Origin: Candidatus Methylomirabilis limnetica
GTDB taxonomy: Bacteria > Methylomirabilota > Methylomirabilia > Methylomirabilales > Methylomirabilaceae
Length of the DNA stretch: 32,000 bases
Direction of reading: 5' to 3'
Assembly (NCBI RefSeq): GCF_003044035.1
Contig: NZ_NVQC01000022.1
Coordinates: forward strand, 210,001 to 242,000
In this document: piece by piece, positions 5,610 through 26,171 of the stretch
Position numbering within the stretch: the first letter of the stretch is position 1
How the letters are laid out: every line of letters starts with the position of its first letter
Program-made: the position numbers and the translations under genes
The notes under the pieces: generated by a model
Database searches by the model: none
What the model saw: only the letters and a program-made list of their open reading frames with translations
What the model was told of the DNA's origin: nothing

Positions 5610-6062
5610 CTATTCCGTCGAGGAGACCTGCCCTCTCCCCTCCAGCGCGGCCTGCATGGTATGCCAGGGCAAGGTAGCACACTTAACCCGAACTGGGAAC
5701 TCTCGTACACCCGCAAAGGCGGCCAGCTTCCCAACTACGAGCGGATCACATGCAACGCTCAGATCGGCCGTGACCATTCTATGAAAGGTCTCGAAAAGGC
5801 CCTCGGCTTCCGCTGTAGTCTTGCCTTTCACAGCCGCAGTCATCATCGATGCGGAGGCTTTAGAAATTGCGCAGCCCGATCCCTGAAAGGCGATATCCCT
5901 GATTACATGATCTTCGACAAGCAGGTACACCGTAATCTGGTCGCCGCACAATGGATTATAGCCTTCCGCCGCACGGTTCGCGCCTTCCAGCTTCTGGAAA
6001 TTTCGCGGCCGCTTATTATGGTCAAGGATGACCTCCTGGTAAAGTTCGCGCAGGTCCGACAT
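5610..6062 (-). CDS. sufU: SufU-type (NifU N-terminal-like) sulfur acceptor/scaffold
   Basis: 150 aa. LYQEVILDHNKRPRN, NPLCGD, GSGCAISKASASMM and VKCATLPW motifs. The start codon overlaps the sufS stop by 1 nt. Confidence 0.85.
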   Translation of the reverse strand: MSDLRELYQEVILDHNKRPRNFQKLEGANRAAEGYNPLCGDQITVYLLVEDHVIRDIAFQGSGCAISKASASMMTAAVKGKTTAEAEGLFETFHRMVTADLSVACDPLVVGKLAAFAGVREFPVRVKCATLPWHTMQAALEGRGQVSSTE

Positions 6063-7339: not shown

Positions 7340-8706
7340 GGCGTTTCCTCGGGTACGGCGCCGTCGCAAAGCCGCGTGAGCAGAAGCGCTTCGAGCCGGG
7401 CTCGGACCGGCTCAATCTTGATCCGACCGAGCAGCTCGCTCGCAAACGCATAGGTCAGCAGGCTCCGGGCAGCCGCAAGATCGACACCGCGAGAACGCAG
7501 ATAAAACAACGCTTCCTGGTCATGCTGGCCGATGGTCGTCCCATGGGTGCATTTCACGTCATTGTTGAAGATCTCTAACTGCGGCTTGCTGTCGATGACG
7601 GCGTCCTCCGACAGCAGGAGGTTCTTGTTGGACTGCTTGGCGTCGGTTTTCTGGGCAGCCTTGTGTACGACGATCTTGCCGCTAAAGACCCCCTTCGACT
7701 TCCCATCGAGGATACCCTTGTAGAGCTGACGGCTGCTGCAATGTGGCTGCGCATGATCGATCCGCGTGTGGTTATCCACGTGCTGCCGACCCGTCACCAT
7801 ATAGAGGCCATTGAGAGTGCATTCGGCGCCTTCCCCATCGAGCACCACGTTCAGATCGTTCCGGACGAGGGCGCCGCCGAGGTCGATGGCGTGGGACGAG
7901 AACGTACTGTTGTGGCCGAGCTGCACCTGCGCCGTTGCCACGTGGAAGGCCTCCTCGCTTTCCCGCTGCACCTTATAATAGTCGATTACTGCGTTCTCGC
8001 CGCCCACGATCTCGGTGACCACATTGGTCAAATAGACGTCGTGTTCCAGGCCCACGTAGCTCTCGATGATCCGCGCCTGGCTGTGAGACCCGACCACGAT
8101 CAGGTTCCTCCGGTACGACACCGGGGCCGAGCCCCCCTCATCGTCAGTCGGCCCGAGGCGGGCGGAGGAGATGAACAACAGGTGGATGGGTGCGTCGACA
8201 ATCGTGTCCTTTGGAATGGACACGAACGCCCCATCCTCCATGAAGGCGGTGTTGAGGGCCACGAACGCCTGATCGTGGTAACCGGCGTACTGAGCCAGGT
8301 GCGCCTTGACCGAAGCCGGGTTGCTGGCGATAACCGCTGCCAGGCTGCTCACCGTGATACCTTCCGGAAGCTTCTCAAGCGACGAAAGATCGGACGAATA
8401 ATGGCCGTTCACGAAGACGAGTTGGGCGCACGCCACCCCTTCGAGAGTAACTGCGTCCATTGCGATTACGCGATGACGCGATGACGCCTGTCCGGCGCGT
8501 GTGAACGTGGTCTTGACGATCGGAGCGACGTTGGTGTACTTCCAATTTTCGAGCCGAGTCGTGGGAAACCCTAATTCGGTGAACCGGCCGAACGCCGCCC
8601 TGCGGATAAGATTGATCCACTGGGGTCGCCTACACACGCTGCCCCTCTCGAGCCGCTCGAAGTCTACGCGATAGCTGTCCAGCTCTTCCGCAACTTGAAG
8701 CATCAC
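7336..8706 (-). CDS. sufD: Fe-S cluster assembly protein SufD
   Basis: 456 aa lying between sufC and sufS. The C-terminal beta-helix region (LLLSEDAVIDSKPQLEIFNNDVKCTHGTTIG) is typical of SufB/SufD. Confidence 0.85.
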   Translation of the reverse strand: MMLQVAEELDSYRVDFERLERGSVCRRPQWINLIRRAAFGRFTELGFPTTRLENWKYTNVAPIVKTTFTRAGQASSRHRVIAMDAVTLEGVACAQLVFVNGHYSSDLSSLEKLPEGITVSSLAAVIASNPASVKAHLAQYAGYHDQAFVALNTAFMEDGAFVSIPKDTIVDAPIHLLFISSARLGPTDDEGGSAPVSYRRNLIVVGSHSQARIIESYVGLEHDVYLTNVVTEIVGGENAVIDYYKVQRESEEAFHVATAQVQLGHNSTFSSHAIDLGGALVRNDLNVVLDGEGAECTLNGLYMVTGRQHVDNHTRIDHAQPHCSSRQLYKGILDGKSKGVFSGKIVVHKAAQKTDAKQSNKNLLLSEDAVIDSKPQLEIFNNDVKCTHGTTIGQHDQEALFYLRSRGVDLAAARSLLTYAFASELLGRIKIEPVRARLEALLLTRLCDGAVPEETP

Positions 8707-8720
8707 GCCGTTGCTGCCTC

Positions 8721-9515
8721 CTACACGATTCCCCGATCGGAGTCGGGGACAGGCGCCTGTTGGGCAAGTACAGCTTCCGCCTTGATCCAGTCGTACCCTT
8801 TCGCCTCGAGTTCGAGGGCCAGCGCCTGCCCCCCTGACTTGACGATCCGCCCCTCAAAGAGCACATGGACGAAGTCGGGAGTGACGTAGTTCAGTAGCCG
8901 CTGGTAATGAGTGATCAGGATCAGGGCGCGGTCCGGGCTTCTGAGCGCATCAATGCCGTTCGCCACGATCCTCAAGGCATCGATGTCCAGGCCGGAGTCG
9001 GTCTCGTCGAGAATCGCCAGCTTGGGTTCGAGCACGGCCATCTGGAAGATCTCGTTCCGCTTCTTCTCCCCACCGGAGAAACCTTCGTTGAGCGGACGAT
9101 TCAAGAGACCCTGGTCCAGCTCGACAAGCTTCATCTTTTCCTTGATCAGATTGAGGAAGTCGATAGCATCCAGCTCTTCGAGGCCGCGGTGCTTTCTTGT
9201 GGCATTTACTGCCGCCTTCAGGAAGTAGCTGGTGCTCACCCCAGGGATCTCCACCGGATATTGGAAACCCAGGAAGACCCCCTCGCGAGCGCGCTCTTCC
9301 GGAGGCATTCGGAGCAGGTCCTTCCCCTCAAACATCACTTGGCCGGCCGTGACCTTGTAGATGTCCCGACCGGCAAGCAGATGGGCCAGGGTACTCTTGC
9401 CAGAGCCGTTCGGACCCATGACGGCATGGACCTCGCCTGCCTTGACCACAAGATCAATGCCACGCAGGATCTCGTTGTCGCCGACTTGCGCGTGCAGGTT
9501 CTTAATTATGAGCAA
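8721..9515 (-). CDS. sufC: Fe-S cluster assembly ATPase SufC
   Basis: 264 aa. Walker A GPNGSGKST, ABC signature FSGGEKKR, Walker B LAILDETDSGLD. Confidence 0.95.
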   Translation of the reverse strand: MLIIKNLHAQVGDNEILRGIDLVVKAGEVHAVMGPNGSGKSTLAHLLAGRDIYKVTAGQVMFEGKDLLRMPPEERAREGVFLGFQYPVEIPGVSTSYFLKAAVNATRKHRGLEELDAIDFLNLIKEKMKLVELDQGLLNRPLNEGFSGGEKKRNEIFQMAVLEPKLAILDETDSGLDIDALRIVANGIDALRSPDRALILITHYQRLLNYVTPDFVHVLFEGRIVKSGGQALALELEAKGYDWIKAEAVLAQQAPVPDSDRGIV

Positions 9516-9544
9516 AGGTTATCCTCTTCGAATACCCAATATAG

Positions 9545-9589
9545 GGGCAGGGCTTGCCCTGCCCAAAATGGGCGCAGCAAGCAGCGCCC
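9545..9589. repeat. Two adjacent GC-rich hairpins in the sufB-sufC spacer
   Basis: GGGCAGGG-CTTG-CCCTGCCC at 9545-9564 (8-bp stem). GGGCGCAGC-AA-GCAGCGCCC at 9570-9589 (stem with one mismatch). No following T-tract. Confidence 0.5.
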
Positions 9590-9593
9590 CTAC

Positions 9594-11054
9594 TTAGCCA
9601 ACGTTTCCCTCGAGGCTCACGCCCAGCAGCTTCTGGGCTTCTACGGCAAACTCCATCGGCAGCTCGCGCAAGACCGTCCTGCAAAAGCCGTTAACGATCA
9701 GATTGACGGCATCCTCAGCCGAGATCCCGCGCTGCTTGCAGTAGAAGAGCTGATCCTCACCGATCTTGGACGTTGACGCTTCGTGCTCGAGCTGCGAGGA
9801 GTTGTTATGCACCTCGAGGTACGGGAAGGTATGGGCGCCGCACTGATCGCCGAGCAGCAAGGAGTCGCACTGCGAGTAGTTCCGGGCGCCGGTCGCCCCC
9901 TTCATGATCTTGACCAGTCCCCGGTAGCTGTTCTGCCCGTGACCGGAGGAGATCCCCTTTGAGATGATAGTGCTCCTGGTGCGCTTGCCGATATGGATCA
10001 TCTTGGTGCCGGTATCCGCCTGCTGGTAGTGGTTGGTCAGCGCTACCGAGTAGAACTCCCCGATCGAATCATCGCCCTGCAGGATGCAGCTCGGGTACTT
10101 CCAGGTGATCGCCGAGCCGGTCTCCACCTGCGTCCAGGAGATCCTGGCGCGCTTCCCCATGCACTTGCCCCGCTTGGTGACAAAGTTGTAGATGCCGCCC
10201 TTCCCTTCCTTGTCGCCCGGATACCAGTTCTGGACCGTCGAGTACTTGATCTGGGCGTCATCGTGGGCGATCAGCTCCACGACCGCCGCGTGCAACTGAT
10301 TCTCGTCCCGCATCGGGGCGGTACACCCCTCCAGGTAGCTCACATAGGCCCCTTCATCGGCGATGATCAGGGTCCGCTCGAACTGGCCCGTCTGGGCGGC
10401 GTTGATGCGGAAGTAGGTCGAAAGCTCCATCGGGCAGCGCACGCCTTTCGGGATATAACAAAACGACCCGTCGCTGAAGACGGCGGAGTTCAGCGTTGCA
10501 AAGAAATTATCGGTGTAGGGCACCACCGACCCAAGGTACTTTCTGACCAGGTCCGGGTGATTCTGCACCGCCTCGGAAAAGGAGCCAAAGATAATCCCGA
10601 GTTCAGCCAGCTTCCCCTTGAACGTCGTAGCAACCGAGACGCTGTCAAACACCGCATCAACCGCGATGCCGCTGAGCCGCTTCCGCTCCGACAGGGGAAT
10701 GCCCAGCTTCGCGAACGTCTCCAGCAGCTTCGGATCGACCTCATCGAGACTCTTGGGTCCTTCCGTCTGCTGCTTAGGCGCCGCATAGTACCGGATGCCC
10801 TGGTAGTCGATGGGCGGATATTTGACGTTGGCCCACTTCGGCTCCGCCTCTGACTTTTCCAGCTTCACCCAATGCCGGTAGGCCTTCAAGCGCCACTGAA
10901 GCATCCAGTCGGGCTCATTTTTCTTGGCAGAGATGAGACGGACGGTATCCTCGTTCAGTCCGTGAGGAACGGACTCCTCTTCGATCTCCGTCACAAACCC
11001 GTACTTGTATTCCTGGTTGGCCAGGGCCTCGATCGCCTTCGAGCTACTACTCAC
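9594..11054 (-). CDS. sufB: Fe-S cluster assembly scaffold SufB
   Basis: 486 aa with highly characteristic SufB blocks ([44 protein letters not shown]). Confidence 0.95.
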
Positions 11055-12676: not shown

Positions 12677-15600
12677 TTATGGCTGGCCCTGATCCGGTCT
12701 GCGGTCGGGGGCCTGGCCACCACCCGAGCGCAGGTCACCGGGCAGGTCTAGGATCCGCTTGAAGATCCCGAGAACCCCTCGCTCGACCGACTGAGTCGGG
12801 ATGCCCTCAACCGCCGGCTGGGTTATGGGTCCGTGAATTCGAAACGAGATTACCAGAATGCTCTTCTCTTTCCCGAAGAGGAGCGTTCCGATCTTAAGCT
12901 CCTTCATGATCGGCAGTTCGCTGGTTGCCTTGAGAGCCTCGTCGGTGAGGCTCAGCGGTCGCACCGCGAGGACCACATCGACCGTGCGATGAGCTAAGTC
13001 AAACTGGCCGACGCCCCCGGCACGCAGGGCCGTACTCCGTAGCTTCAGGTCCTCCGTTCTCGCGATCCCATCCTTGAGATTGAAGGTCGCGCTGATGTCA
13101 TCGTAGGGCATCCCTTTCCCTTCTGGCCCCTTCTTGAAGAGCCCAGTGAGGTTGGTCATCCTCAGAACCTTCTCGATCATGAAAGAGCGTTGAATCCTCC
13201 CATCGACCATCTCGATCCGCACTCGCCCCCCAAGGGAGCGAAGAAAATACTCACCCCCTCCAGCCGTGACTACCCCGCTTGCCCGCACCTGTCCCGTCGC
13301 AAGAAATGAGTCCTGATCCTTGACGATTCGCTCGGCGCGACCCTCCTCCATGGTCAACTGAATTCGCCAGCGCCACCCGGGCTGCTCAAGTCTACCCTGG
13401 ACCGTCGCGCCCAGCGTCCCACCACCCCAGCGAGCCTGCAAATGGGTGGTCTCGACAGACGTCTCTTTGAACTGGATCTCTCCCGCAAGATGTTCCAGGG
13501 GCCCTGGATGCCCCCGAACGGTGAGCGAGGCGTCTTTCGTGCGGAGATGTCCACGATAGCGAGGAAGCCGTTGAGTCCCCTGAATCCTCACATCCAGGTC
13601 CAGCACCCCTGTGGCGTCGAGGCCATCGGGGAGCAGGGCGCTGGCCAGTGCCCCGGAGACAGCCCCTCGGATTGTCACGTCCATTTCCTCACCGATGGTC
13701 CCCCCCACGGTGACCTCAGTCCCCTCGCCTCGAAGCGACAGCGCTGAGATCATAAGTCGCCCTCCTTGAAACGCGAGACGGGTCCGATCCTGGGTCCGAA
13801 AGGCGTGCCCTCGGAAATTCAGTTGGGCCGTTTCGAGGTCCACGGTCACCCGCTCAGGCCTCTGCTCCCCGAGCCGACCGCCGATTTCGATCCGTCCTGA
13901 ACCGACTCCGTCCATCTGATTGGGAAGGGAAGCCCCGACGATCCTCAGAAGGGACCCAAGATCGCCCTTCTCCAGCGTGAGAGTTCCCTCGTATGGGCTG
14001 GCGCCCGTGGCCGTGACCACGCCTTGGAGCATGTAGCCTCGGTCAGGGAGGCTCAGGAGTCCCGTCATGCGCGCCCGAGCCCCTTCCCAGGTCAGGGTGC
14101 CGTGCCCTCGGCCGAGGCTTGTCCCCCGGTAGGCCAGGTCCCCAACCTCGAGTGTCGTCGTGACGTTTGGTTGGCCGATCGGTCCTTCCCCTTTGGCCGA
14201 GGCCCGCACCGTCCCCGTGAGCCCTGAATTCCGGAGGAGCGCCAGGCGTTCAATAGCGATCCGATTCGAGCTCAAGTCGAACTGTGACACACCATTGAAG
14301 CCTACCTCGAAGCGACCTGCGATCATCTCGCCTCCCCGGTGCAGTTCGAGGCCCTCAAGGCGAAGCCCTCTCTGATCGAGGTGCACAGTGGCGCGCCCTC
14401 GGTCCCAGTGCTCCTTGAGGATAAGGGCGTTCGTGAGCGTCACCGTGCCCTGTCCGTGGAGGGTTTCTGGCGTTCCTCGGATCTGCCCTTTGAGGGTGGC
14501 CTGTCCGGCAAGCGCGTGAGGATCGATGCCCACGAGGCGCCCGGTGTGCTCGAGCTGCGGGAAGTGGGCGTACACGCTGAGACTTACCTCCCCGTTCGGC
14601 TGAACGACGCCCTCGGCTTGCAGGCGCGCGCGGCCAATTTCGACCGTGCCCTGCCGGACGTGGATCCGACCATCTCGAGCTTCAAGGACGAACTGACCAT
14701 GACCCCGCTCTTCGGGGCGATCGATGAGATACAACTCCGCGATGCGGATGTGGGCCTGGCCTCGCAGCCCCCTGAGGTCAGCCCCTTCGCCCGTCGCCTG
14801 AATCTGGATCGTGGCCTGCCCACCCACCGGAGTCTTTTCCGTAAAGAGGCGCAGGATGTCGGCCAAATCGACCTGCTCCCCGCGCAGGGCGAGGCGGTAT
14901 CGAAGCTTCTCCCAGATAAGCATGATGTCTCCGGTCAGATCGCCTCTCGCCGTTCGTAGGGTAAGCTCCTGTAGGCGAAGCTCACGGCGATTTGCCAGAA
15001 CCGCGACGGTCATTCCCGACATAGCGACCTGCTCGATCTGCCCGTTGCCCACTGCGGCGGAACCGGTGAAAGAGGGATCTGTCAGGGGTCCTGTCGCCTT
15101 CCCCTCAAGCAGGACAGCCCCCCTAAGGGGAATGGGCAGATTCAGTGGAAAAAGCCCGTCAAGCCCACCACGCGCCTGCATGGTCAGATCAAGTGTCGCG
15201 TCGGTCAGGAAGTTGTGGATGCGACCCGCTCCCTGAACGGCGGCCCCCAGGACGGAGAGGTGGAATTGCTTGACCTGGATGTCGCCTCCGTCAACCTCCG
15301 CCCTCAGGGTGAGATCGCGAAGGAGGAACGGCGTTGCTCCTCCTTGGATCTTGCTCTCTTCAATCTTGAGCGTCCCTCCGACCACCCCTGCGGTTGCTCG
15401 CAGGTCGGCGTGGAGCCCGACCAGTGTCAGTTCGATGCCGGAGTCTCGCCAGAGGACCGATCCGTCCCGGATCTCCACGTGCTCGATGCCGACCGGCAGG
15501 AGAACGGGCATCGGTGAGCCCGGTTCCGTCTGTGGGCGTGGCAGTTCTAACCGAACGATGGGGTGACGCAGCACGATCCGGCCAAGGCGGAGGCGGAACC

Positions 15601-15967
15601 GAAGGAGGTCCATCAGGTTCGGATAAAGTTGCACCTCCTCAATCTTTGCGAGGACTCCGTCCTGGAGCCGCTCCCGGCTCGCGATTCGGACGTCCCGGAG
15701 ATTCAATGATCGGAGGACCGCGCTCACGCGTACCTCGCCGATCTGGACCTCATGGTCGAATCGTGCCTGGACCTCGGACTGGATTCGGGATCGAATCTTC
15801 GCCTGAATAGAGTGAGTCCGCAGCAGCAGGGAGATACTGCCAAGCACGAAGAGGATGAGTCCCGCCACGATTCCAATCGTGATGACGACCCACCGGGCCC
15901 GGCCAGTCACAGGCAGTGGCACGAGAGGCATACGATGCAATGACTTACCCGTCACGCCGGTATCCAA
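12677..15967 (-). CDS. AsmA/TamB-family large envelope protein (N-terminal TM anchor)
   Basis: 1096 aa. N-terminal hydrophobic helix WVVITIGIVAGLILFVLGSISLLL, a long repetitive beta-rich body, and a C-terminal region resembling the DUF490/AsmA C-terminus. The family call rests on architecture only. Confidence 0.65.
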   Translation of the reverse strand: MDTGVTGKSLHRMPLVPLPVTGRARWVVITIGIVAGLILFVLGSISLLLRTHSIQAKIRSRIQSEVQARFDHEVQIGEVRVSAVLRSLNLRDVRIASRERLQDGVLAKIEEVQLYPNLMDLLRFRLRLGRIVLRHPIVRLELPRPQTEPGSPMPVLLPVGIEHVEIRDGSVLWRDSGIELTLVGLHADLRATAGVVGGTLKIEESKIQGGATPFLLRDLTLRAEVDGGDIQVKQFHLSVLGAAVQGAGRIHNFLTDATLDLTMQARGGLDGLFPLNLPIPLRGAVLLEGKATGPLTDPSFTGSAAVGNGQIEQVAMSGMTVAVLANRRELRLQELTLRTARGDLTGDIMLIWEKLRYRLALRGEQVDLADILRLFTEKTPVGGQATIQIQATGEGADLRGLRGQAHIRIAELYLIDRPEERGHGQFVLEARDGRIHVRQGTVEIGRARLQAEGVVQPNGEVSLSVYAHFPQLEHTGRLVGIDPHALAGQATLKGQIRGTPETLHGQGTVTLTNALILKEHWDRGRATVHLDQRGLRLEGLELHRGGEMIAGRFEVGFNGVSQFDLSSNRIAIERLALLRNSGLTGTVRASAKGEGPIGQPNVTTTLEVGDLAYRGTSLGRGHGTLTWEGARARMTGLLSLPDRGYMLQGVVTATGASPYEGTLTLEKGDLGSLLRIVGASLPNQMDGVGSGRIEIGGRLGEQRPERVTVDLETAQLNFRGHAFRTQDRTRLAFQGGRLMISALSLRGEGTEVTVGGTIGEEMDVTIRGAVSGALASALLPDGLDATGVLDLDVRIQGTQRLPRYRGHLRTKDASLTVRGHPGPLEHLAGEIQFKETSVETTHLQARWGGGTLGATVQGRLEQPGWRWRIQLTMEEGRAERIVKDQDSFLATGQVRASGVVTAGGGEYFLRSLGGRVRIEMVDGRIQRSFMIEKVLRMTNLTGLFKKGPEGKGMPYDDISATFNLKDGIARTEDLKLRSTALRAGGVGQFDLAHRTVDVVLAVRPLSLTDEALKATSELPIMKELKIGTLLFGKEKSILVISFRIHGPITQPAVEGIPTQSVERGVLGIFKRILDLPGDLRSGGGQAPDRRPDQGQP

Positions 15968-16480: not shown

Positions 16481-16732
16481 GACTGATCCGCGTGTGGTTC
16501 GCCTGGCTCACCATGAGCGGAGGGAGACATCCACGGCATGCATGACTTATGCAAGGATCAATAATTATTTCGGTTCTTCCGGCACTAGCGTGGGTACAAG
16601 AGGGCTCAATATCCCTTCTGGGGAATAGGGTAGCTGTGCTCCTACCCCTTGAGGGGAGAGGATGAAGGTGGGGGTGATCGGATCCTGGAAGGCCCGGGTA
16701 CCCACGGAACATCCGGAAGAAGCATTATTTTC

Positions 16733-16769
16733 TTGACGTATTAGTCATATATATACTACTAAGGAGTAG
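16733..16769 (+). promoter_or_regulatory. lexA promoter/operator region
   Basis: TTGACG at 16733-16738 is followed by GTATTAGTCAT. Imperfect 22-bp palindrome TTAGTcaTATATATAcTACTAA at 16741-16762. Palindrome CTACT-N4-AGTAG at 16756-16769. RBS AGGGAG at 16789 and ATG at 16800. Confidence 0.4.
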
Positions 16770-16799: not shown

Positions 16800-17393
16800 A
16801 TGGTACTCACCGACCGGCAGCGGCAGATCCTGACTTTCATCGCCACCTATAAGGCCCGGCATGGTGCCCCCCCGACGCAGCGCGAGATCGCCCAGCACTT
16901 GAAGATCTATATTCGGGGCGTCCAGTATCACCTCGAGCGTATGGAGAAGGCCGGCCATCTCACCCGCACGCCCAAGCGGGCGCGGGCCATCGAACTGCGC
17001 CAGGAGCAACGCACCACCCTCACGCCTCTACTCGGTCGGGTGGCGGCCGGCCGGCCGGTCCTGGCCGAAGAGCATATCGAGGCCACGTACCCGCTTCCCC
17101 AGGAATGGACCGGTAGCGGGAAGACCTTCCTCTTAAAGGTTCATGGCGACAGCATGCGCGATGCCCGCATCTTTGACGGCGACCTCGTGCTCGTGGCGGC
17201 GCAGCCGGAGGCCCACCCTGGCGAGATCGTTGTGGCCATGGTCGAGAACGAGGCCACGGTCAAGCGCTTCCAGACGGACGGCACGACGGTCGTCCTCATG
17301 CCGGAGAACGAGGCGTTCGCGCCGATCAGGATCACGCAAGAGCAGCGTTTTCAGATCCTGGGTAAGGTCATCGGCGTCTATCGGAAGCTGTAG
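16800..17393 (+). CDS. lexA: LexA repressor (S24 peptidase)
   Basis: 197 aa. Winged-helix N-terminus (TDRQRQILTFI...REIAQHL), cleavage site VAAGRP, catalytic Ser in HGDSM and Lys in ATVKRF. Confidence 0.9.
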   Translation: MVLTDRQRQILTFIATYKARHGAPPTQREIAQHLKIYIRGVQYHLERMEKAGHLTRTPKRARAIELRQEQRTTLTPLLGRVAAGRPVLAEEHIEATYPLPQEWTGSGKTFLLKVHGDSMRDARIFDGDLVLVAAQPEAHPGEIVVAMVENEATVKRFQTDGTTVVLMPENEAFAPIRITQEQRFQILGKVIGVYRKL

Positions 17394-17395
17394 TC

Positions 17396-18100
17396 ATGCA
17401 ACGTGTGCTTACGCCCAAGCCGCCCTTGTCCCAGTTCACCTGCGCCCTCGACCGGTGGAGCGCGCAGGGTGGCCTCGTCCTGCTCTATGGCAGTGAAGAT
17501 GTCCTCGCCTATGCCCTATTGGCGATCGCCTCGCTGCTCGCCAAAGGAGAGCATGTCGTCTTCATCGATTCGGCCAACACCGTCAACCCCTTCCTGATCG
17601 CCGAGGTCGCGACGCGCATGAACAGGCAGCCGAAAGAGCTCCTCGACTGCCTCCATATTTCACGGACCTTCACCGTCCATCAACTGGAGGCCCTCATCAC
17701 GGAACGCATCGCCAGAGCCCTGCACACCTATGCCTCACGCATCCTGATCGCCTCCGGCTTTCTCCACAACCTCTATGATGAAGACGTGGCGCCGCGGGAG
17801 GCTTGGCGGATCTTCAGAAAAGCGGTGGCCCATCTGCGGGCGCTGGCCGATGCAGGCACCCTCGTCCTGGTGGTCTGTCCCACACCAGCCGCTCGTAGTG
17901 AGCCAGGTCGAACCATCCGTCTCCGTGACCGGGACGGGCTGCTGGATGCCCTGATCGCCACGGCCGATCGAGTTGTCAAGCTGGTCACCTCCACTACTTC
18001 GGCTACGCTCAGTACAGGGCTCTCCCTGGAAAAGTCGGTCATGGTGAGGAGCACAGCTAAAAGACTTGACCGCCTCTCAGGTTTGGCATACGAAACGTAA
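17396..18100 (+). CDS. ImuA/SulA-like inactivated RecA-fold protein
   Basis: Starts 2 nt after the lexA stop. It has RecA/KaiC-like topology (LVLLYGSEDVLAYALLAIASLLAKGEHVVFIDSANTVNP...LHISRTFTVHQLEALI...RILIASGFLHNLY), but the Walker A GKT is replaced by GSEDVLAY. Confidence 0.5.
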   Translation: MQRVLTPKPPLSQFTCALDRWSAQGGLVLLYGSEDVLAYALLAIASLLAKGEHVVFIDSANTVNPFLIAEVATRMNRQPKELLDCLHISRTFTVHQLEALITERIARALHTYASRILIASGFLHNLYDEDVAPREAWRIFRKAVAHLRALADAGTLVLVVCPTPAARSEPGRTIRLRDRDGLLDALIATADRVVKLVTSTTSATLSTGLSLEKSVMVRSTAKRLDRLSGLAYET

Positions 18101-18206
18101 GCGGCTTACTGAATAGTTATACGTCGCAAGCATAGTTGTTCACATGCACCTGCGCCAGTTGATCGCAGTACAGAACAATCGGGGTTATCTGCGGACAGGA
18201 GTCTTG

Positions 18207-19196
18207 ATGCTAAGTCGATTTGAAAAACAACTCTTCGGGCTGATGACGGGCGCTTTTGCATCTCGAGCGCTTGCGATCGCGGTTCAACGAGATCTATTCA
18301 CGTGGCTGTCGCGGGGGGGAGACGGGCAGACAGTAGAACAAGTCGTCGCGTATTTGGGGTTTCAAGAGCGGACCTCACGAGTATTTCTTGATGTGCTCTC
18401 CGCGATAGGGCTCTTGCGGTGCGAGAATGGACTGTTCCGTAACACTGAGCTCTCTGAGCAGCTCTTGGTACGCGGTCGCATAGCCGATCAACGTGGCGCC
18501 GTCGCGCTGTTTGATCATTTGTATCTTGGGTGCGGAACACTTGAACACACGCTCAAAACAGGAAATCCGGCCAGCCGTGAATATGGGTACTTTTTTGGCG
18601 CCGGTACAGGTTCTTACCCGGATGATATGGACGGAAGTGGGTTTGCACCCGCGCTACTCCTCGGTGAGTTTTGGGATTTCTCCAATGCGCGGCACGTTCT
18701 CGACGTGGGCGGATGTCTCGGAGCTACAGCTCACGCGCTGGCGGCACGATATCCCAACCTTCGCGTAACGGTGTTCGACCTTCCCGAAATTTGTGAACGC
18801 GGGAAGGCCTTGTCCAAGCAGCATCCGGCATCTGACGCGCGCGTGACATTTCACCCGGGGAATTTCTTTGACGAGGACTACCCGCATGGGGTCGATACCA
18901 TTTGCTTTGTGCGCATCCTTCACGATTGGTCCGATAAGGAGGCGCTTCGTCTCTTGGAGAAAGCACATGCGGCTCTGCAACCAGGGGGACGAATCGTCAT
19001 TCTCGAAACGCTGCGCGAAGGTTCAGAGAAGGCGTCACTGACCGCATTGATCGATCTTCTGATGCTGCTAATCAGTCCGGAAGGAGGGCTAAGAACAAGA
19101 GTGGCAATGGGCAAACTCTTGCGCACTGCTGGATTTCGAAGGGTCCGGACAAAGCCAACCGCGTATCTTTATAGCCTCATTTCTGCCGAGAAATAA
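18207..19196 (+). CDS. Class I SAM-dependent O-methyltransferase (COMT/Methyltransf_2-like)
   Basis: N-terminal winged-helix dimerisation region, SAM motif VLDVGGCLGATAHALA, DLPE, then ILHDWSD and GGRIVILE. I prefer the ATG at 18207 (GGAG upstream). The ORF track starts at 18144. Local GC is about 50%. Confidence 0.8.
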   Translation: MLSRFEKQLFGLMTGAFASRALAIAVQRDLFTWLSRGGDGQTVEQVVAYLGFQERTSRVFLDVLSAIGLLRCENGLFRNTELSEQLLVRGRIADQRGAVALFDHLYLGCGTLEHTLKTGNPASREYGYFFGAGTGSYPDDMDGSGFAPALLLGEFWDFSNARHVLDVGGCLGATAHALAARYPNLRVTVFDLPEICERGKALSKQHPASDARVTFHPGNFFDEDYPHGVDTICFVRILHDWSDKEALRLLEKAHAALQPGGRIVILETLREGSEKASLTALIDLLMLLISPEGGLRTRVAMGKLLRTAGFRRVRTKPTAYLYSLISAEK

Positions 19197-19200
19197 AACC

Positions 19201-20358
19201 ATGACAAACCGTACAGCATTGATCACAGGCGCCGCCGGCTTCCTGGGATCGTTCCTCACGGCGGCACTGCTTAATCGAGGTTGGCAGATTTACGCGCTTG
19301 TCCGTAGTAAGCCGGACCAATTACCCCAAGCGTTACTTGCGCACGAACTACGGGGTAACCCTGCCGTTCTTGAACGTCTTACCGTGCTGGAAGGCGATGT
19401 AACCCGTCCGCTACTAGGGCTCACGTCATCAATGGTTAGCAGGCTGCAGAATGTGACCGACGTATGGCACTGCGCCGCCAATTTCGAGATCGGCTCGTCG
19501 CATCGAAAAGCCATTGTTGATACTAACGTCGTTGGTACCAAACATGCGCTCGATCTCGCTCATACCCTGACAGGTCAATCCATTCGATTTCATTTCCTGA
19601 GTACAGCCTACGCCGGGCTCCAAATCAACGACACATGTTTCGAGCGCCTGAGCGACAGACGTGACGGTGCGTTTCGTACGTCGTACGAATGGACTAAATC
19701 TCGCGCTGAGCACCTTGTCATGGCGGCACGCGAGGAGCGACATCTGGATGTGCGAATCTACCGTCCGTCGGTTGTTTCCGGACATTTCACAAACGGACAG
19801 TGCCTCAGTTACAACGGATACCAGGGTGTATTTCGCGCCCTGTATATTTTGCGCCGTATGCTACAGAACGCATTCGGACCTGACTTTGACCGGAACCTGA
19901 GACTTCGCGTCGCCGCTGATCCAGACCTGCGCCTTAATCTCGTGCCGGTCGACTACGTCATTGACGCAATGATTTGCATAGCGGATCAAGAGATTTCTGG
20001 CACCCCTATCTTCAACATTACGCATTCTACGGGGAATCAGTTATCCATGCTCTTCGAGCGCGGGACCAAAGCGCTTGCACTGGAGGGGATTCAACTGTCC
20101 GACAAGCACGATTTTCGTCGGCGCCCAAAGTCTTCGTTCGAACGGCTTTTTGATCGGCTCATCCTATTTCAGGCACCCTACCTCTTAGAGTCATTGTCGT
20201 TCGATACGACGAATTACGCTCAAGTCGTACCGGGGAGACTTTTGCACGCACCAATCCTTTCGAGCGAGTATTTTGACAGAATGAACCACGTGTTACTACA
20301 TAGGCTACAAGAGGAGTTTGAAGTCGTCGCGACACCAACCGTAGACGCAGTATCCTAA
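19201..20358 (+). CDS. Extended SDR, thioester-reductase / acyl-CoA-reductase-like (NAD_binding_4-like)
   Basis: 385 aa. Rossmann motif ALITGAAGFLGSFL and catalytic YEWTKSRAE (YxxxK). Length and C-terminal domain fit terminal reductase domains. Local GC is about 50-52%. Confidence 0.7.
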   Translation: MTNRTALITGAAGFLGSFLTAALLNRGWQIYALVRSKPDQLPQALLAHELRGNPAVLERLTVLEGDVTRPLLGLTSSMVSRLQNVTDVWHCAANFEIGSSHRKAIVDTNVVGTKHALDLAHTLTGQSIRFHFLSTAYAGLQINDTCFERLSDRRDGAFRTSYEWTKSRAEHLVMAAREERHLDVRIYRPSVVSGHFTNGQCLSYNGYQGVFRALYILRRMLQNAFGPDFDRNLRLRVAADPDLRLNLVPVDYVIDAMICIADQEISGTPIFNITHSTGNQLSMLFERGTKALALEGIQLSDKHDFRRRPKSSFERLFDRLILFQAPYLLESLSFDTTNYAQVVPGRLLHAPILSSEYFDRMNHVLLHRLQEEFEVVATPTVDAVS

Positions 20359-20533: not shown

Positions 20534-20563
20534 TTGACTCACGGTATTAGTCATCCGTATAAT
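20534..20563 (+). promoter_or_regulatory. Near-consensus sigma70-type promoter for the small-ORF/polB unit
   Basis: TTGACT at 20534-20539, an 18-nt spacer containing GGTATTAGTCAT, and TATAAT at 20558-20563. Confidence 0.55.
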
Positions 20564-20569
20564 TACTGT

Positions 20570-20725
20570 GTAACTACTTAGGTGTTTAGGCTGAAGGCTG
20601 AAGGTTCTAAATTATCTCGCAAGGCACGAATCGATCCATTCAAGACCTTTTCGGAGTTTTGTATGATCACGCATGACTTACCCCTAACAGCCTTCAGCCT
20701 TCAGCCTAAACACCTGAGTAGTTAC
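20570..20725. repeat. 35-bp inverted repeat (one G-U position) enclosing an 86-nt loop, at the predicted 5-prime end of the polB transcript
   Basis: Left arm 20570-20604 is gtaactacttaggtgtttaggctgaaggctgaagg. Right arm 20691-20725 is ccttcagccttcagcctaaacacctgagtagttac. A tandem cctgagtagtt x2 and a competing palindrome cacctgag...ctcaggtg (20711-20744) follow. Confidence 0.85.
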
Positions 20726-20807: not shown

Positions 20808-21077
20808 ATGGGGAGGACGCTGCCGACGTATAACATGCTGATCCTGCAAGAACTCGACAAGGACGAGTGGAAGCGATTTCGGCGGGCGCTGCGTAGGGAC
20901 GACCAGGAGTTGTTCGATGAGCTGTTCATCGCGCCGAAGATCCAGATGCAGGCCGGCGCCTATGCCAGCAACGCGAAGCCGTTCGAGACGATGCTGATCT
21001 GCATGCTGATCGAACTGAAACAGGAACTCAGGATTCTGGAGCAGCGAGTTGCGCACACAGAAGGGCTGGCTATTTGA
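20808..21077 (+). CDS. Hypothetical 89-aa helical protein, translationally overlapped with polB
   Basis: ATG is preceded by GAGGTGGGA. The product is charged and helical (LQELDKDEWKRFRRALRRDDQELFDELF). Its 3-prime end overlaps the polB TTG start by 29 nt. I recognise no family. Confidence 0.5.
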   Translation: MGRTLPTYNMLILQELDKDEWKRFRRALRRDDQELFDELFIAPKIQMQAGAYASNAKPFETMLICMLIELKQELRILEQRVAHTEGLAI

Positions 21078-23271
21078 TCTCTATCCGTCCAGGGACGGGA
21101 TGGTGCTTTGGCTCAAGACCGAGCAGGAATGCCTCCGCCTGGTTGACACGTACTGGGCGTCGTTTTACCTTGCCGGCCCAGACGCGGCGCTCAAGGCGTG
21201 CGTGTCCTACATGCTCCGGCAGCGCCTGCCGATCACGACGGAGTGGACAGAGCGCCGGGAGTTGTTGTCGAATCGTTTCATCCCCGTGCTCAAGGTCAGC
21301 ACGTCGAGACTCGACAGGTTCTCCGCCTTTGTCCAGTTGGCCTATCGGTTCAACCCGGAGCTCACCTTCTACAACTGCGATATCCTGCTACCGCAGCGCT
21401 ATCTCTACGAGACGGGGTTGTTCCCTCTGGCCCAGTGTGAACTGACTTACGATGAGAGCCTACGACTCAAAGAGATCCAGCTCTTGGATTCGCCGTGGGC
21501 TGTCAACTACCCCATCCCGCCGCTTCGCTTCCTGCAACTGCGGATGGAGCATGAGGCCAACCCGAGCCACGCCCGGACCACCCGGTTAATCGCGTCAGTC
21601 GATGACCGCGAGTTCGTCTTCGAGGCGGAAGGGGCAGAGCTTCTGAGGAGTCTGAACAGCCTACTCCAGAAGTACGACCCCGATGTTATCCTCTCGCGAT
21701 ACGGCGATTCGTACATCCTTCCCAGACTCCGGAGGATGGCGGATACGTGTGGCATCCCGCTTGACTTCAACAGGGACGGCGCGGCAGGGATGACCAGCAA
21801 GCAGGCCAGGAGCTTCTTCACCTACGGCAGGATCGTCTATCAGGCGGGTGCTCAGATCTTGCATGGCCGCTGGCACCTGGATATCGCGAACTCGTTTGTT
21901 GTCAAGGAGACGGGTCTGGACGGCCTGATGGAGCTGGCCCGGGTCACGAAGCTACCGGTACAGCGTTGCGCGAGGACCTCTCCAGGTACGGGCGTCTCAT
22001 CAATGCAGCTTGACGTGGCGTTCCAGGATGGCTATTTGATCCCCTGGCGCAAGCGAATGCCGGAGGATTTCAAGACCGGGAGCGAGCTGCTGCTCACAGA
22101 CAAGGGGGGCTTGGTCTTTCAGCCGCAGATTGGGTTGTACGAGCAGGTCTGCGAGCTCGACTTCAGCTCAATGTTTCCCAGCATCATGGTCAAGTATAAC
22201 ATCTCGCAGGAAACTCTGCGGTGCGCCTGCTGTCCGGAGAACAGGGTCCCGGAGATCGGCCACCACATCTGCACGAAGCGGCGGGGGCTGGTGCCTCGGA
22301 CGCTCGAGCCGGTGCTCACGCGGCGGCGCGCCTACAAGCTGCTGATGCGGCAGGCAGTCACGGCGGACGAGCGCGAGCTGTACAACAAGCGACAGTCTGC
22401 TCTCAAGTGGCTTGGCCTGGTCTCATTCGGGTATCAGGGATACCGGAACGCGCGCTTCGGACGGCTTGAAGGGCACGAGGCGGTCACCGCCTATGCGCGG
22501 GAGACGCTGCTGGCTGCCAAGGAGATCGCTGAGGCACAAGGCTACTCGCTCATCCATGCGATTGTCGATTCGATGTGGCTGAAGAAGGCGGGCGCGACAC
22601 GGGAGGATTATGAGCGGCTGGCGGCAGACATCTCGCGGCAGACCGGGCTTTCTATGGCCATTGAAGGGGTGTACCATTGGATCGCATTCCTGCCGTCACG
22701 GGTATCCCCGAAGGCACCGGTCCCCAACCGCTATTTCGGCTGTTTCGTAGACGGCACACTCAAGGTGCGGGGCCTGGAGGTCAGGCGCTCAGACACGCCG
22801 GGGTTTGTGCGGAGCGCCCAGGCTGCGATGCTTAAGACGCTCTCGCAGGCCAGAACCTACGACGAATGCACAGCGCGGGTCCCTGAACTACTCGACGAGC
22901 TGAGGGTACGCGTTGATGCACTACGAAGCGGCGGGGTACCGCTTGCGGAGTTGGCCATCTCCAGACACCTGTCTCTAGTACCTGTGGCGTACAAGACCGA
23001 CACGATCCTCTCGGAGGCGGCCAAGGACCTTGCGAGTCGAGGGGTTCATCTCTCTGCAGGTGAGACGATCCAGCTTGTGATCGTGGACTCTAAAGCCAAC
23101 GATCACGTCTCGAAAGCAAAAGCGTACGGTTTTTACGACGGCAGCCTGGGATACGATGTCGAGAAGTACACGGAACTCACGCTGAAGGCCGCAGAGTCGG
23201 TACTGTGGTTTTTAGGCTACGACTATGCCCGGTTGAAGGCGCTGATATCGGGAGAGCGCAACGACTGTTAA
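21049..23271 (+). CDS. Family-B DNA polymerase, archaeal PolB/Pol II-like, with degenerate exonuclease domain
   Basis: 740 aa, colinear by eye with Pfu-type PolB. Matching blocks are N-terminal GWLFDLY, FYNCDILLPQRYLYETGL, DPDVILSRYGDSYILPRL, motif A ELDFSSMFPSIMVKYNISQETL, motif B RQSALKWLGLVSFGYQGY, motif C LIHAIVDSMW and RGLEVRRSD. TTG start with GGAG 8 nt upstream. Confidence 0.9.
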   Translation: MRTQKGWLFDLYPSRDGMVLWLKTEQECLRLVDTYWASFYLAGPDAALKACVSYMLRQRLPITTEWTERRELLSNRFIPVLKVSTSRLDRFSAFVQLAYRFNPELTFYNCDILLPQRYLYETGLFPLAQCELTYDESLRLKEIQLLDSPWAVNYPIPPLRFLQLRMEHEANPSHARTTRLIASVDDREFVFEAEGAELLRSLNSLLQKYDPDVILSRYGDSYILPRLRRMADTCGIPLDFNRDGAAGMTSKQARSFFTYGRIVYQAGAQILHGRWHLDIANSFVVKETGLDGLMELARVTKLPVQRCARTSPGTGVSSMQLDVAFQDGYLIPWRKRMPEDFKTGSELLLTDKGGLVFQPQIGLYEQVCELDFSSMFPSIMVKYNISQETLRCACCPENRVPEIGHHICTKRRGLVPRTLEPVLTRRRAYKLLMRQAVTADERELYNKRQSALKWLGLVSFGYQGYRNARFGRLEGHEAVTAYARETLLAAKEIAEAQGYSLIHAIVDSMWLKKAGATREDYERLAADISRQTGLSMAIEGVYHWIAFLPSRVSPKAPVPNRYFGCFVDGTLKVRGLEVRRSDTPGFVRSAQAAMLKTLSQARTYDECTARVPELLDELRVRVDALRSGGVPLAELAISRHLSLVPVAYKTDTILSEAAKDLASRGVHLSAGETIQLVIVDSKANDHVSKAKAYGFYDGSLGYDVEKYTELTLKAAESVLWFLGYDYARLKALISGERNDC

Positions 23272-23572: not shown

Positions 23573-24199
23573 ATGAACATCGTGAATGGCGTACTACGGT
23601 GGAGCGTCCTGATCCTTGTTAGCGTGCTGGCGGTAACAGTGCCGCTGACGGAGGCGTGTGCTGGCAGCCGTGGGGGTGGTGGTCGGGGAGGTGGCAGCCA
23701 TGGCGGTGGTCATGGCGGTGCCAGCCATCATTGGGGTGGTCACCATGGTGGCCGGCATGGTCACGGAGGGTTCAGCAGTGGCGTCGTCGTCGAATTTGGT
23801 GGGTGGTGGAACCCGTGGGGGTATGGAGGGTACGCGCCGTACGGGTGGGGAGCGCCCAGATACTACGGCTACCCTGAGCACCCCTATGGTGGGTACGCTC
23901 CATCGTACGCCTACCCTCCCGCTGTGCCACCGTATGCGTACGACTACGACGCTGCGGCGGGCGGTGCGTCGCTCCAGATCGAGGTGACGCCTGGAGAGAC
24001 GGAGATCCTGGTGGATGGCACCCGGGTGGGGATGGCCAAGGAGTTTCAGGGACCGGTCATCGTCCCGGTGGCGGCTGGATCCCACACCCTGGAGTTCAGG
24101 GTGGGCGGGCTGACGATCATCGAGGACATCGTGGCCTCGCCGCGGACGACGGTGCTCATCAAACGAGATATGGGAACGACCGTGGTACCACAGCAGTAG
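23573..24199 (+). CDS. Secreted His/Gly-rich protein with C-terminal PEGA domain
   Basis: AAGGAG RBS. Signal-like N-terminus (VLILVSVLAVTVPLTEA), then GGGGRGGGSHGGGHGGASHHWGGHHGGRHGHGG, then a Tyr/Pro/Gly-rich linker. The C-terminus LQIEVTPGETEILVDGTRVG...GSHTLEFRVGG is typical of PEGA. Confidence 0.7.
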   Translation: MNIVNGVLRWSVLILVSVLAVTVPLTEACAGSRGGGGRGGGSHGGGHGGASHHWGGHHGGRHGHGGFSSGVVVEFGGWWNPWGYGGYAPYGWGAPRYYGYPEHPYGGYAPSYAYPPAVPPYAYDYDAAAGGASLQIEVTPGETEILVDGTRVGMAKEFQGPVIVPVAAGSHTLEFRVGGLTIIEDIVASPRTTVLIKRDMGTTVVPQQ

Positions 24200-24631: not shown

Positions 24632-24934
24632 CTAGCGCGGGGCAGGATGTGTGGCGGTAATTCGATTCACCTTGATCTTCGCAGCGTGTCGTTCTGCCTG
24701 AGCAAGGTCATACTCCATCTGTAGACCGAGCCACACCTCGGGGCTGCTGCCGAAGGCCTTAGAAAGTCGGATCGCCATCTCCGGAGAGATCCCGGCCTTC
24801 TCGTTCACCAGGTTGTTGAGGGCCTGCCGCGTCACACCAAGGCGTTTCGCTACGTCTGTAACAGTCACTCCGAGCGACTCGATACACTCTTGGCGGACAA
24901 TCCTTCCGGGGTGGGGGGGATTCTTCATACGCAT
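24632..24934 (-). CDS. higA: HigA-family antitoxin (XRE HTH)
   Basis: MKNPPHPGRIVRQECIESLGVTVTDVAKRLGVTRQALNNLVNEKAGISPEMAIRLSKAFG is the classic HigA/VapI pattern. AGGAG RBS. The gene lies downstream of higB. Confidence 0.9.
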   Translation of the reverse strand: MRMKNPPHPGRIVRQECIESLGVTVTDVAKRLGVTRQALNNLVNEKAGISPEMAIRLSKAFGSSPEVWLGLQMEYDLAQAERHAAKIKVNRITATHPAPR

Positions 24935-24956
24935 GCCGTATTCTCCTTTTTCCCTA

Positions 24957-25235
24957 CTAGTGGTAGTCGATCAGATCTACATCATATACGTCGCCTTCCT
25001 CAAAGCGGAAGATGACTCGCCAGTTTGCCCGGACAGTCACGCTCCAGAAGCCTGTGAGGTCACCCTTGAGCCGGTGCAGTCTAAAACCTGGCAGGTTCAT
25101 TTCTTCAGACCTTCTGGCGCGGTTCAACATGAACAGGATGTTTTCGAGTTTCTCGAGTAGATCCGGGGAGACGCCCCTGACATCACCCTGTTGAAACAGC
25201 CGTCTCAACCCCTTATGCCCGAACCGTTGAATCAT
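24957..25235 (-). CDS. higB: HigB toxin (RelE/ParE superfamily, plasmid-killer type)
   Basis: 92 aa. FGHKGLRRLFQ...LHRLKGDLTGFWSVTVRANWRVIFRFEEGDVYDVDLIDYH. Confidence 0.9.
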   Translation of the reverse strand: MIQRFGHKGLRRLFQQGDVRGVSPDLLEKLENILFMLNRARRSEEMNLPGFRLHRLKGDLTGFWSVTVRANWRVIFRFEEGDVYDVDLIDYH

Positions 25236-25943: not shown

Positions 25944-26171
25944 CTATTTGTTAGAAGCGTGAAGGAATTGCTCAACCGTTAATCCCGCCTTGGAGATAAG
26001 ACTGCGGAGGGTCCCGCGTGCAACTTCTGGGTGGTTAGGGATGGAGAGAGTGACGCTGTGGCCTGGTTTCGTCATGATAATGTGACTTCCCTTTTGTCGA
26101 ACTACTTGCCAACCTAGCGTTTGGAAGATTTGCGCTGCTTCAGATGGGCGAAGAATAGGGGCGGACGGCAT
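25944..26171 (-). CDS. hicA: HicA mRNA-interferase toxin
   Basis: 75 aa. LGWQVVRQKGSHIIMTKPGHSVTLSIPNHPEVARGTLRSLISKAGL is the YcfA/HicA signature. The start overlaps the hicB stop by 1 nt. Confidence 0.9.
   Translation of the reverse strand: MPSAPILRPSEAAQIFQTLGWQVVRQKGSHIIMTKPGHSVTLSIPNHPEVARGTLRSLISKAGLTVEQFLHASNK

Follow-up and report, generated by a model that had tools for sequence, protein, structure and literature searches.

Contig NZ_NVQC01000022.1 of Candidatus Methylomirabilis limnetica—a methane-oxidizing NC10 bacterium—carries a gene for a B-family DNA polymerase (PolB) of the PolB2 family together with lexA and genes for the two PolB2 partners iRadA and PPB2. We have analyzed this locus within a stretch of 32,000 nt (positions 210,001–242,000 of the contig, forward strand), which is called the window in the following and to which all coordinates refer. 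The gene order within it is lexA–iRadA–[two cargo genes]–PPB2–polB2. An initial annotation, made from the sequence alone, had pointed to the polymerase gene and had aligned its motifs by eye with those of Pfu-type enzymes; it had missed that these motifs are the hallmark of a known family, and it had also missed lexA and the inactive RadA gene, which lie 3–4 kb 5′ of polB2.

The PolB2 polymerase and its partner genes

The open reading frame (ORF) of polB2 extends over 21049–23271 (+) and encodes 740 aa from a TTG start, in line with the initial annotation. This start is credible because a GGAG is found 7 nt 5′ of the TTG codon and because the N-terminus that follows fits the family consensus MxxxxxGWLFDxYP in an alignment of 40 homologs. 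The product matches, at 100% identity, a protein of Candidatus Methylomirabilis limnetica that NCBI names only "DNA polymerase domain-containing protein". Pfam recognizes DNA_pol_B (1.2e-34), while the exonuclease domain stays under the cut-off (E = 0.17). NCBIfam models of Pol II score 37–47 bits at cut-offs of 570–1435, and the closest models of that collection, PRK05761.1-2 and -4, are both under their own cut-offs. The fold is that of a B-family polymerase with a structurally kept exonuclease domain that lacks its active site: the AlphaFold2 (AF2) model reaches a predicted local distance difference test (pLDDT) value of 91.9 and a predicted template modeling (pTM) score of 0.89, and superposes on archaeal PolBs. 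These are the top Foldseek matches (9N, KOD, Pab, and Pyrobaculum; E ~1e-40 to 1e-41, TM ~0.70–0.71), and phmmer finds the solved archaeal PolBs at 1e-51 to 1e-42. Archaeal replicative PolB3/PolB1 enzymes (Pyrobaculum 5mdn; Pfu, KOD, 9N, and Pab) are hence the closest solved structures and share the layout of N-terminal, exonuclease, palm, fingers, and thumb domains. On the contrary, their motifs DxE, NxxxFD, YxxxD, DTD, KxxxNSxYG, and KxY are intact, whereas PolB2 of M. limnetica is without these.

More than 3000 homologs of PolB2 exist, with full-length relatives of 45–52% identity in Nitrospiria, Armatimonadota, Hydrogenedentota, Anaerolineae, Leptospirales, and others. An exhaustive search returned 823 cluster representatives below 1e-30, two of which—at 34–35% identity—are Thermoplasmatota archaea. 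The nearest archaeal homologs that the search found are 32–35% identical. Archaeal homologs from a PolB2 context score 440–460 bits over their full length, as opposed to 179 bits for the PolB3 5mdn. The Thermoplasmatota proteins bear the same signature (HGIVDS, SYxSYGR, and GRxHxDK), and their polB2 loci are flanked by a Rad51-like gene and a DUF8156 gene, one locus also holding an SRAP gene. In the alignments, the protein does not group by motif state with the replicative archaeal PolB1/PolB3 or with E. coli Pol II-type PolBs, in which DxE, NxxxFD, YxxxD, and DTD are intact; we rejected identity with either type on the grounds of motif state, scores, and context.

The residue calls within the exonuclease domain were checked by position mapping, by phmmer to solved archaeal PolBs, and with a 40-sequence family profile run against PDB. 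At the Exo I position (21541–21549), FDIE aligns to L-R165-M166-E167, so that the Asp is lost. At Exo II (21700–21729), YGDSYILPRL is aligned at Y218 with NGDxFDFxYL, and the catalytic Asp is replaced by I223. Both replacements had been read correctly by eye, and both hold throughout the family: among the 40 diverse homologs, position 165 is never Asp and position 223 is always I or L. For Exo III, the initial annotation had proposed that ~55 aa were missing between HLDIANSF and ELARVTKLP, which turned out to be an error of register. This stretch aligns essentially without gaps to 5mdn 336–360, and R274-W275-H276-L277-D278 sits on R-Y332-V-L-D335-D336 of 5mdn—the Exo III YxxxD of that enzyme—with D278 on the catalytic D336 by phmmer and on D335 by profile alignment. 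The true shortening amounts to ~44 aa and lies upstream of Exo III, between Exo II and Exo III (PolB2 246–276 vs 5mdn 256–330). The view that all three exonuclease motifs are lost is therefore correct as regards the Asp residues of Exo I and Exo II—two of the four carboxylates—and the Tyr of Exo III, but not for the Exo III segment as such, which survives as an invariant GRWHxD. E167 is still present, and so is an Asp that sits on the Exo III position or beside it. A formal alignment confirmed that DxE, NxxxFD, and YxxxD are not intact. In DEDDy exonucleases, the loss of these two Asp residues and the Tyr suffices to inactivate the enzyme. Judged by its residues, the exonuclease domain is a structural relic that presumably does not proofread.

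The Exo III position is part of a longer invariant block, S255...Y259-G260...G273-R274-x-H276-x-D278-xx-N281-S-F (21811–21897). Its G273-R274-x-H276-x-D278 portion is invariant in the 40 homologs; D278 in particular is found in 40/40 sequences of the bacterial alignment, is nearly invariant in another alignment, and is preceded by a conserved SYFSYGR...GRxH. The residue that follows D278 is I in M. limnetica, R in 13/40 homologs, and K in the archaeal protein P0197 (HVDK). Published modeling of the family places an iRadA-binding loop here, followed by a D(K/R) motif that touches the PPB2 arm (PMC11791011), and the block of aa 255–278 presumably corresponds to these two contacts.

The polymerase center shows a comparable mixture of kept and replaced residues. 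Motif A (DFSSMFPS, 22159–22182) bears the invariant D371, while its Tyr is exchanged for F376; motif B (KWLGLVSFG, 22405–22431) bears the invariant K453, with its Asn replaced by L457; motif C (I505-V506-D507, 22561–22569) has lost the first Asp and kept the second, invariant one; and the KxY position reads N560-R561-Y562 (22726–22734). All of these replacements had been noted from the sequence by eye and were reproduced by the alignments. D371, K453, D507, and R561 are invariant across the 40 diverse bacterial homologs, and position 505 is I or L in 40/40. D371 and D507, the Asp residues of motifs A and C, correspond to the pair that binds the metal ions in B-family polymerases such as those of RB69 and phi29. 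The ratio of nonsynonymous to synonymous substitution rates (dN/dS) of 0.13 for PolB2, 0.08 for PPB2, 0.25 for iRadA, and 0.23 for lexA indicates purifying selection on the whole set. Since the motif pattern is family-wide and the genes are under purifying selection, it is not a product of chance. Four residues deviate from the family: F376, Y218, G456, and Q463 are limited to the Methylomirabilis clade (the M. limnetica protein, P0003, P0004, P0007, and P0009). Some homologs of 1100–1300 aa (P0122, P0169, P0166, and others) contain inteins with LAGLIDADG endonuclease domains, inserted in motif B (after aa ~455–457 of the M. limnetica protein) or in motif A (before aa ~370).

The first gene of the set, lexA (16800–17393, +), encodes an SOS repressor of 197 aa (Pfam LexA_DNA_bind 1.3e-14, Peptidase_S24 1.3e-35). 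Both the helix-turn-helix (HTH) domain and the S24 domain are intact, with the VAAG cleavage site, the GDSM serine, and the VKRF lysine visible in the translation. The adjoining iRadA (17396–18100, +; 234 aa) has a RecA/RadA fold with a destroyed P-loop. Pfam matches Rad51 (8.8e-5), and the family profile finds RadA 4a6p at 3e-9 and also RecA in PDB. The G-K of Walker A falls into a gap (LLYGSEDVLAY vs GPESSGKTT), and only ~25 residues precede the core. The protein is hence a RadA/Rad51 homolog that lacks both the N-terminal domain and the ATPase residues. Within window 17881–18100, iRadA differs from that of the related locus L001—whose PolB2 is 86% identical—by an internal insertion of 8 aa, AARSEPGR, which is also present in the related locus L097, and by a longer and different C-terminal tail (…MVRSTAKRLDRLSGLAYET); this tail may derive from the inserted DNA.

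The PPB2 gene (20808–21077, +) lies directly 5′ of polB2, and its 3′ end overlaps the polB2 start by 29 nt, in L001 too. It encodes the 89-aa protein whose importance the initial annotation had already suspected. Pfam and NCBIfam scans of this ORF gave no match, for which reason its identity as DUF8156/arCOG07300 rests on alignment and motif: it aligns over its whole length with the DUF8156 proteins 5′ of PolB2 in seven other loci—which carry precomputed PF26485 assignments—and it starts with MGRTLPTYN, that is, with the published MGRT arm. PPB2 has been described as a small helical PolB2 partner that bears this arm and forms a trimer (PMC11791011).

The combination of these genes is well known. 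Makarova et al. (2014) found PolB2, arCOG07300, and an inactive RadA in archaea and "several bacterial genomes", noted lexA as a further member of the predicted operon, and expected PolB2 to be inactivated (PMC4104785). Timinskas, Timinskas & Venclovas (2025) defined PPB2 and iRadA, reported an exclusive bacterial order iRadA–PPB2–PolB2 that is sometimes interspersed with other genes, and found bacterial loci enriched in lexA, DUF72, and SRAP (PMC11791011). The same study describes replacement of the first Asp of DxD (Sis 401-IID-403) and a D(K/R) motif, and its supplement types an NC10 operon as LexA-iRadA-PPB2-PolB2 with "HAIVDSIYL ... IVD". A survey in Nucleic Acids Research from 2026 divides bacterial PolBs into three groups, of which G2/PolB2 is one (PMC12926913). 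The window fits this picture: the order iRadA–PPB2–PolB2, often with lexA, recurs in the loci compared here, with a contiguous lexA–iRadA–PPB2–PolB2 in L001, L003 (Hydrogenedentota), and L005, UDG–iRadA–PPB2–PolB2–DUF72 in L004 (Armatimonadota), and PPB2 directly 5′ of PolB2 in L001 and L003–L007. In its decayed exonuclease, IVD for DxD, MGRT-PPB2 directly 5′ with stop/start overlap, P-loop-less iRadA, and adjacent lexA, the M. limnetica operon resembles other bacterial PolB2 (G2) operons. Its odd motifs are the published hallmark of the PolB2 family, and the gene is, by its sequence, an ordinary member rather than a new discovery.

A split operon with a repeated promoter element

M. limnetica departs from other G2 operons in that its operon is broken by two cargo genes and a hairpin resembling a miniature inverted-repeat transposable element (MITE), and in that PPB2–polB2 has its own promoter/operator copy; Timinskas et al. 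treat interspersed operons just in a general way. The cargo genes encode an O-methyltransferase (18144–19196, +; Pfam Methyltransf_2 5e-36) and a reductase of the NAD_binding_4 family (19201–20358, +; Pfam NAD_binding_4 4.8e-43); both stand outside the mutasome, and neither occurs in the L001 operon. The blastn alignment of the window with L001 breaks at window positions 17880 and 20807, against 1586 and 1759 in L001. The GC content of the cargo region is ~0.53–0.54, as compared with ~0.60 in the flanks. Because these breakpoints show the block to be missing from the contiguous L001 operon, the two cargo genes together with ~450 bp of non-coding DNA are, on this comparison, a ~2.7-kb insertion that splits the operon. 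Two further loci of the Methylomirabilis clade, L097 and L099, carry different cargo at the same place, plus a gap between PPB2 and PolB2, and the iRadA–PPB2 interval of this clade is hence, as far as the compared loci tell, an insertion hotspot. In these 79–81% identical relatives, PPB2 lies ~2 kb from PolB2 (L097 3751–6029, L099 4169–6001). The gap in L099 holds a phage-integrase fragment. In L097, an ORF of 50 aa overlaps the PolB2 start by 29 nt—like the PPB2 stop in the window and in L001—and possibly represents what is left of the 3′ end of PPB2.

A promoter/operator-like element, read from the sequence, precedes lexA at 16732–16763 (+) and consists of TTGACG, then GTATTAGTCATATATATACT. 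A second one precedes PPB2 at 20534–20563 (+), where a promoter scan found TTGACT-18-TATAAT with an 11/12 match and an operator-like core at 20544–20561; a terminator-like hairpin with a T-run lies just 5′ of it. Both copies follow the same module—a T-run, TTGAC, GTATTAGTCA..GTATAAT—and have the operator-like core ATTAGTCA in common. The window contains two occurrences of the core pattern GTATTAGNCATNNNTATA, against an expectation of 0.01. The element is kept 5′ of lexA in L001 (436) and 5′ of iRadA, PPB2, and PolB2 in L097 and L099, with three copies in L097 (304, 3664, and 5959) and two in L099 (3897 and 5832). In Methylomirabilis-clade genomes, the terminator-like hairpin with its T-run thus recurs together with the promoter ahead of each dispersed gene of the PolB2 system. 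In the alignment of 8 copies, an invariant ATTAG-CA core sits in the spacer between −35 and −10, which is the usual place for a repressor to bind. In the armatimonadotal L004, a canonical CGAACACATGTTCG LexA box is found within a TTGACA/TATAAT promoter ahead of iRadA–PPB2–PolB2–DUF72. We regard the repeated element as a candidate SOS operator of NC10 bacteria, of a non-palindromic kind, and expression of the PolB2 system would accordingly be SOS-controlled.

The MITE-like hairpin (20570–20725, +) separates the second promoter from the start of PPB2. It derives from a gene for a 23S rRNA-intervening sequence protein, is 156 nt long, and has 35-nt arms that are 97% complementary. As RNA, it folds with −102 kcal/mol (z = −8.1). 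Its inverted-repeat ends are conserved (GTAACT[AG]CTCAGGTGTTTAGGCTGAAGGCTGAAGG ... CCTGAGTAGTTAC), and a 24-mer of the arm recurs exactly in 89 genomic stretches from many phyla (L008–L096), among them Desulfobacterales (with many copies per genome), Nitrospira, Methylomirabilis, Brocadiaceae, Omnitrophota, Verrucomicrobia, SAR324, and Anaerolineales. Most copies measure 150–199 nt. The longest, of 468 nt (L014), encodes a 117-aa "23S rRNA-intervening sequence protein" (PF05635, 1.8e-33), and the short copies keep just both ends of this gene. An Rfam scan of the whole window returned nothing, which places the hairpin outside the curated RNA families, and a literature search for an intervening-sequence (IVS) protein or inverted-repeat element as a mobile repeat found nothing relevant. 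The repeat could be a mobile or an RNase-III-processed IVS-like element.

The insertion hotspot, the per-gene operator modules, the leader hairpin, and the pocket changes Y376F, L456G, and L463Q might point to a remodeled PolB2 system in the Methylomirabilis (NC10) clade—a re-wired, post-transcriptionally controlled mutasome with altered sugar or base selectivity in place of a standard PolB2 extender—although we hold this to be unlikely.

A putative damage-induced mutasome

We consider it very probable that the product of the ORF at 21049–23271 is the catalytic subunit of a PolB2 "mutasome" of the bacterial kind, exonuclease-dead but with a working polymerase center, which performs damage-induced translesion synthesis with PPB2 and iRadA. 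The analysis shows to which family the protein belongs, in what state its motifs are, which partner genes surround it and in what conserved order, that selection is purifying, and that the promoter/operator element is duplicated; from this and from archaeal relatives, we infer the activity, the complex, and the SOS control. The PolB2 family arose in archaea and was transferred to bacteria. Its center would work via D371 of motif A, D507 of motif C, and K453 of motif B. PolB2 would be made together with PPB2, whose stop overlaps the polB2 start, and with the ATPase-dead iRadA encoded right after lexA, and the three proteins are predicted to assemble as the heteropentamer PolB2:PPB2(3):iRadA(1) that was modeled for the family (PMC11791011). 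The likely role of this assembly is DNA-damage-induced translesion synthesis, with mispaired or lesion-opposed primer ends being extended without proofreading. The ~2.7-kb cargo insertion divides the operon, and the PPB2–polB2 half carries a separate copy of the lexA-type promoter/operator; this duplicated element would hold both halves co-regulated.

The only biochemically characterized relative in the literature searched is Dpo2 of Sulfolobus islandicus, an archaeal PolB2. S. islandicus Dpo2 is a robust, distributive polymerase without 3′–5′ exonuclease activity, which inserts accurately on undamaged DNA, efficiently extends mismatches and lesions, and is error-prone by way of extending mispaired termini (PMC8764526). 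Compared by its published description, Dpo2 shares with the M. limnetica protein the replaced first Asp of motif C (IID in Sis, IVD here), the lack of an exonuclease site, and PPB2 and iRadA as partners. Dpo2 is reported to be the damage-inducible polymerase of that organism (PMC7390963), and the role of a damage-inducible extender is expected here as well. The idea of a proofreading-free, specialized enzyme, already raised in the initial annotation, agrees with this family membership. Its suggestion of low fidelity needs to be split: insertion on undamaged DNA is accurate in Dpo2, and errors come with the extension of mispaired ends. Differences exist as well, as the Sis exonuclease domain is more decayed (PMC11791011) and archaeal regulation is tied to Orc1/Cdc6 homologs and not to LexA.

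By analogy, a LexA-linked, multi-subunit, proofreading-free translesion machine with a RecA-fold subunit is also found in E. coli Pol V (UmuD′2C-RecA) and in the mycobacterial-type ImuA-ImuB-DnaE2. Their catalytic subunits belong to the Y or C family, however, their small subunits are unrelated, and iRadA is unable to hydrolyze ATP. Eukaryotic Pol zeta is a B-family, exonuclease-dead extender like PolB2 (PMC11791011). E. coli Pol II is likewise a bacterial, SOS-inducible B-family polymerase with extender properties, but it acts as a single subunit, and its DEDDy exonuclease is active.

Several points weigh against the proposed mutasome. For its catalytic activity, we extrapolate from Dpo2 of archaea, although even the closest archaeal homologs found are distant (see above), and no experimental work on any bacterial PolB2 was found in the literature searched. 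iRadA is now 2.7 kb away from PPB2–polB2 and has a C-terminal tail altered relative to L001, so that stoichiometric co-expression with PPB2–PolB2 is not guaranteed. A search for palindromic LexA boxes in the Methylomirabilis promoters gave no clean palindrome. By inspection, no QLxLF-type beta-clamp motif—an optional feature in the family—is visible in the C-terminus of PolB2 (...ARLKALISGERNDC) or in that of iRadA (...AKRLDRLSGLAYET). Finally, the single-sequence AF2 model of PPB2 shows three helices at a pLDDT of 55; with this low confidence, a helical fold of the 89-aa protein is weakly supported.

The initial annotation had held a non-catalytic scaffold to be equally likely. PolB2 would then be a catalytically dead fold that serves as DNA-binding or scaffold subunit with iRadA and PPB2—the view taken before 2020. 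The first Asp of DxD is indeed gone, the Asn/Ser of motif B and the Lys of KxY are replaced, and the exonuclease site is destroyed, in agreement with the inactivation predicted by the earlier comparative work (PMC4104785). However, bacterial and archaeal homologs alike keep the two Asp ligands of the metals and the Lys of motif B without exception, R561 joins them in the 40 bacterial homologs, motifs A and B are the homing sites of inteins in some family members, and archaeal Dpo2 is a robust polymerase with a motif C of IID (PMC8764526, PMC11791011). A working enzyme is favored over the scaffold because the catalytic residues are invariant, dN/dS is 0.13, and Dpo2 is an active exonuclease-free extender; we hold a dead scaffold to be quite unlikely.

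An active polymerase might also differ from a generic extender in its substrates. Y376F, L456G, L463Q, and W218Y set the M. limnetica protein apart from other bacterial PolB2, and since they are restricted to its clade and located in nucleotide-binding motifs, they could alter substrate selectivity, for example toward ribonucleotides or modified nucleotides. The loss of the steric-gate Tyr had been noted before, and F376 does replace it; the conclusion drawn from it is weak, though, given that Tyr is retained in 36/40 family members, that Phe is found only in the Methylomirabilis clade, and that the aromatic ring responsible for the steric block is present in Phe as well. In Y-family polymerases, either of these two residues serves as the gate. 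The remaining signature, the partners, and the context are moreover those of a standard PolB2, and altered selectivity appears, if anything, slightly less probable still than a scaffold.

That the gene serves the replication of an integrated mobile element, be it a plasmid, a virus, or a casposon-like element, rather than host repair is hardly credible: toxin–antitoxin genes lie nearby (HigB/HigA and HicA), TraG-like and toxin–antitoxin genes adjoin the operon in L001, and the GC content is lower downstream, but the polymerase has no proofreading site, the window holds no primase, helicase, terminal-protein, or integrase partners, the partners are instead lexA, iRadA, and PPB2 between flanks of chromosomal housekeeping genes (suf operon, moaA, and yhdP), and the same four-gene unit recurs in unrelated chromosomal contexts of several phyla.

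For the mutasome proposed here, the locus leaves current understanding unchanged, and its value lies in annotation and as a pointer for experiments. The PolB2 family, once "predicted dead", is now known in Sulfolobus as "the main damage-induced mutagenic polymerase"; its bacterial members were acquired from archaea. With all four components and a candidate operator, the locus of an NC10 methane oxidizer is a usable test case: Is the bacterial branch an SOS-controlled B-family mutasome? What do PPB2 and iRadA contribute? And does LexA control a split operon via duplicated operators?

The rest of the window

Ordinary chromosomal genes are found at 6062–11054 (−), 3198–4244 (−), and 12677–15967 (−). 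They comprise, in this order, an operon of the suf Fe-S cluster system, with genes for a SufS-like aminotransferase, two proteins of the SufB/D family, and an ABC ATPase; a radical SAM gene of the MoaA type; and a gene for a YhdP/AsmA-family protein, and because of these genes, the PolB2 locus is regarded as chromosomal. On the other side, just 3′ of the polymerase, a lower-GC stretch holds a pair of HigB-like toxin and HTH antitoxin genes (24632–25235, −) and a HicA toxin gene (25944–26171, −). An ORF of 208 aa at 23573–24199 (+), for which Pfam gave no match, encodes a signal-peptide-like N-terminus, then a Gly/His-rich and then a Tyr/Pro/Gly-rich low-complexity region. Near-identical segments of ~35 nt (CTTGG[TC]CTTCC.CTCTGC..CGTGTATTACTC[GA]TCCAG) recur at ~24261, ~25403, and ~12584 (−).

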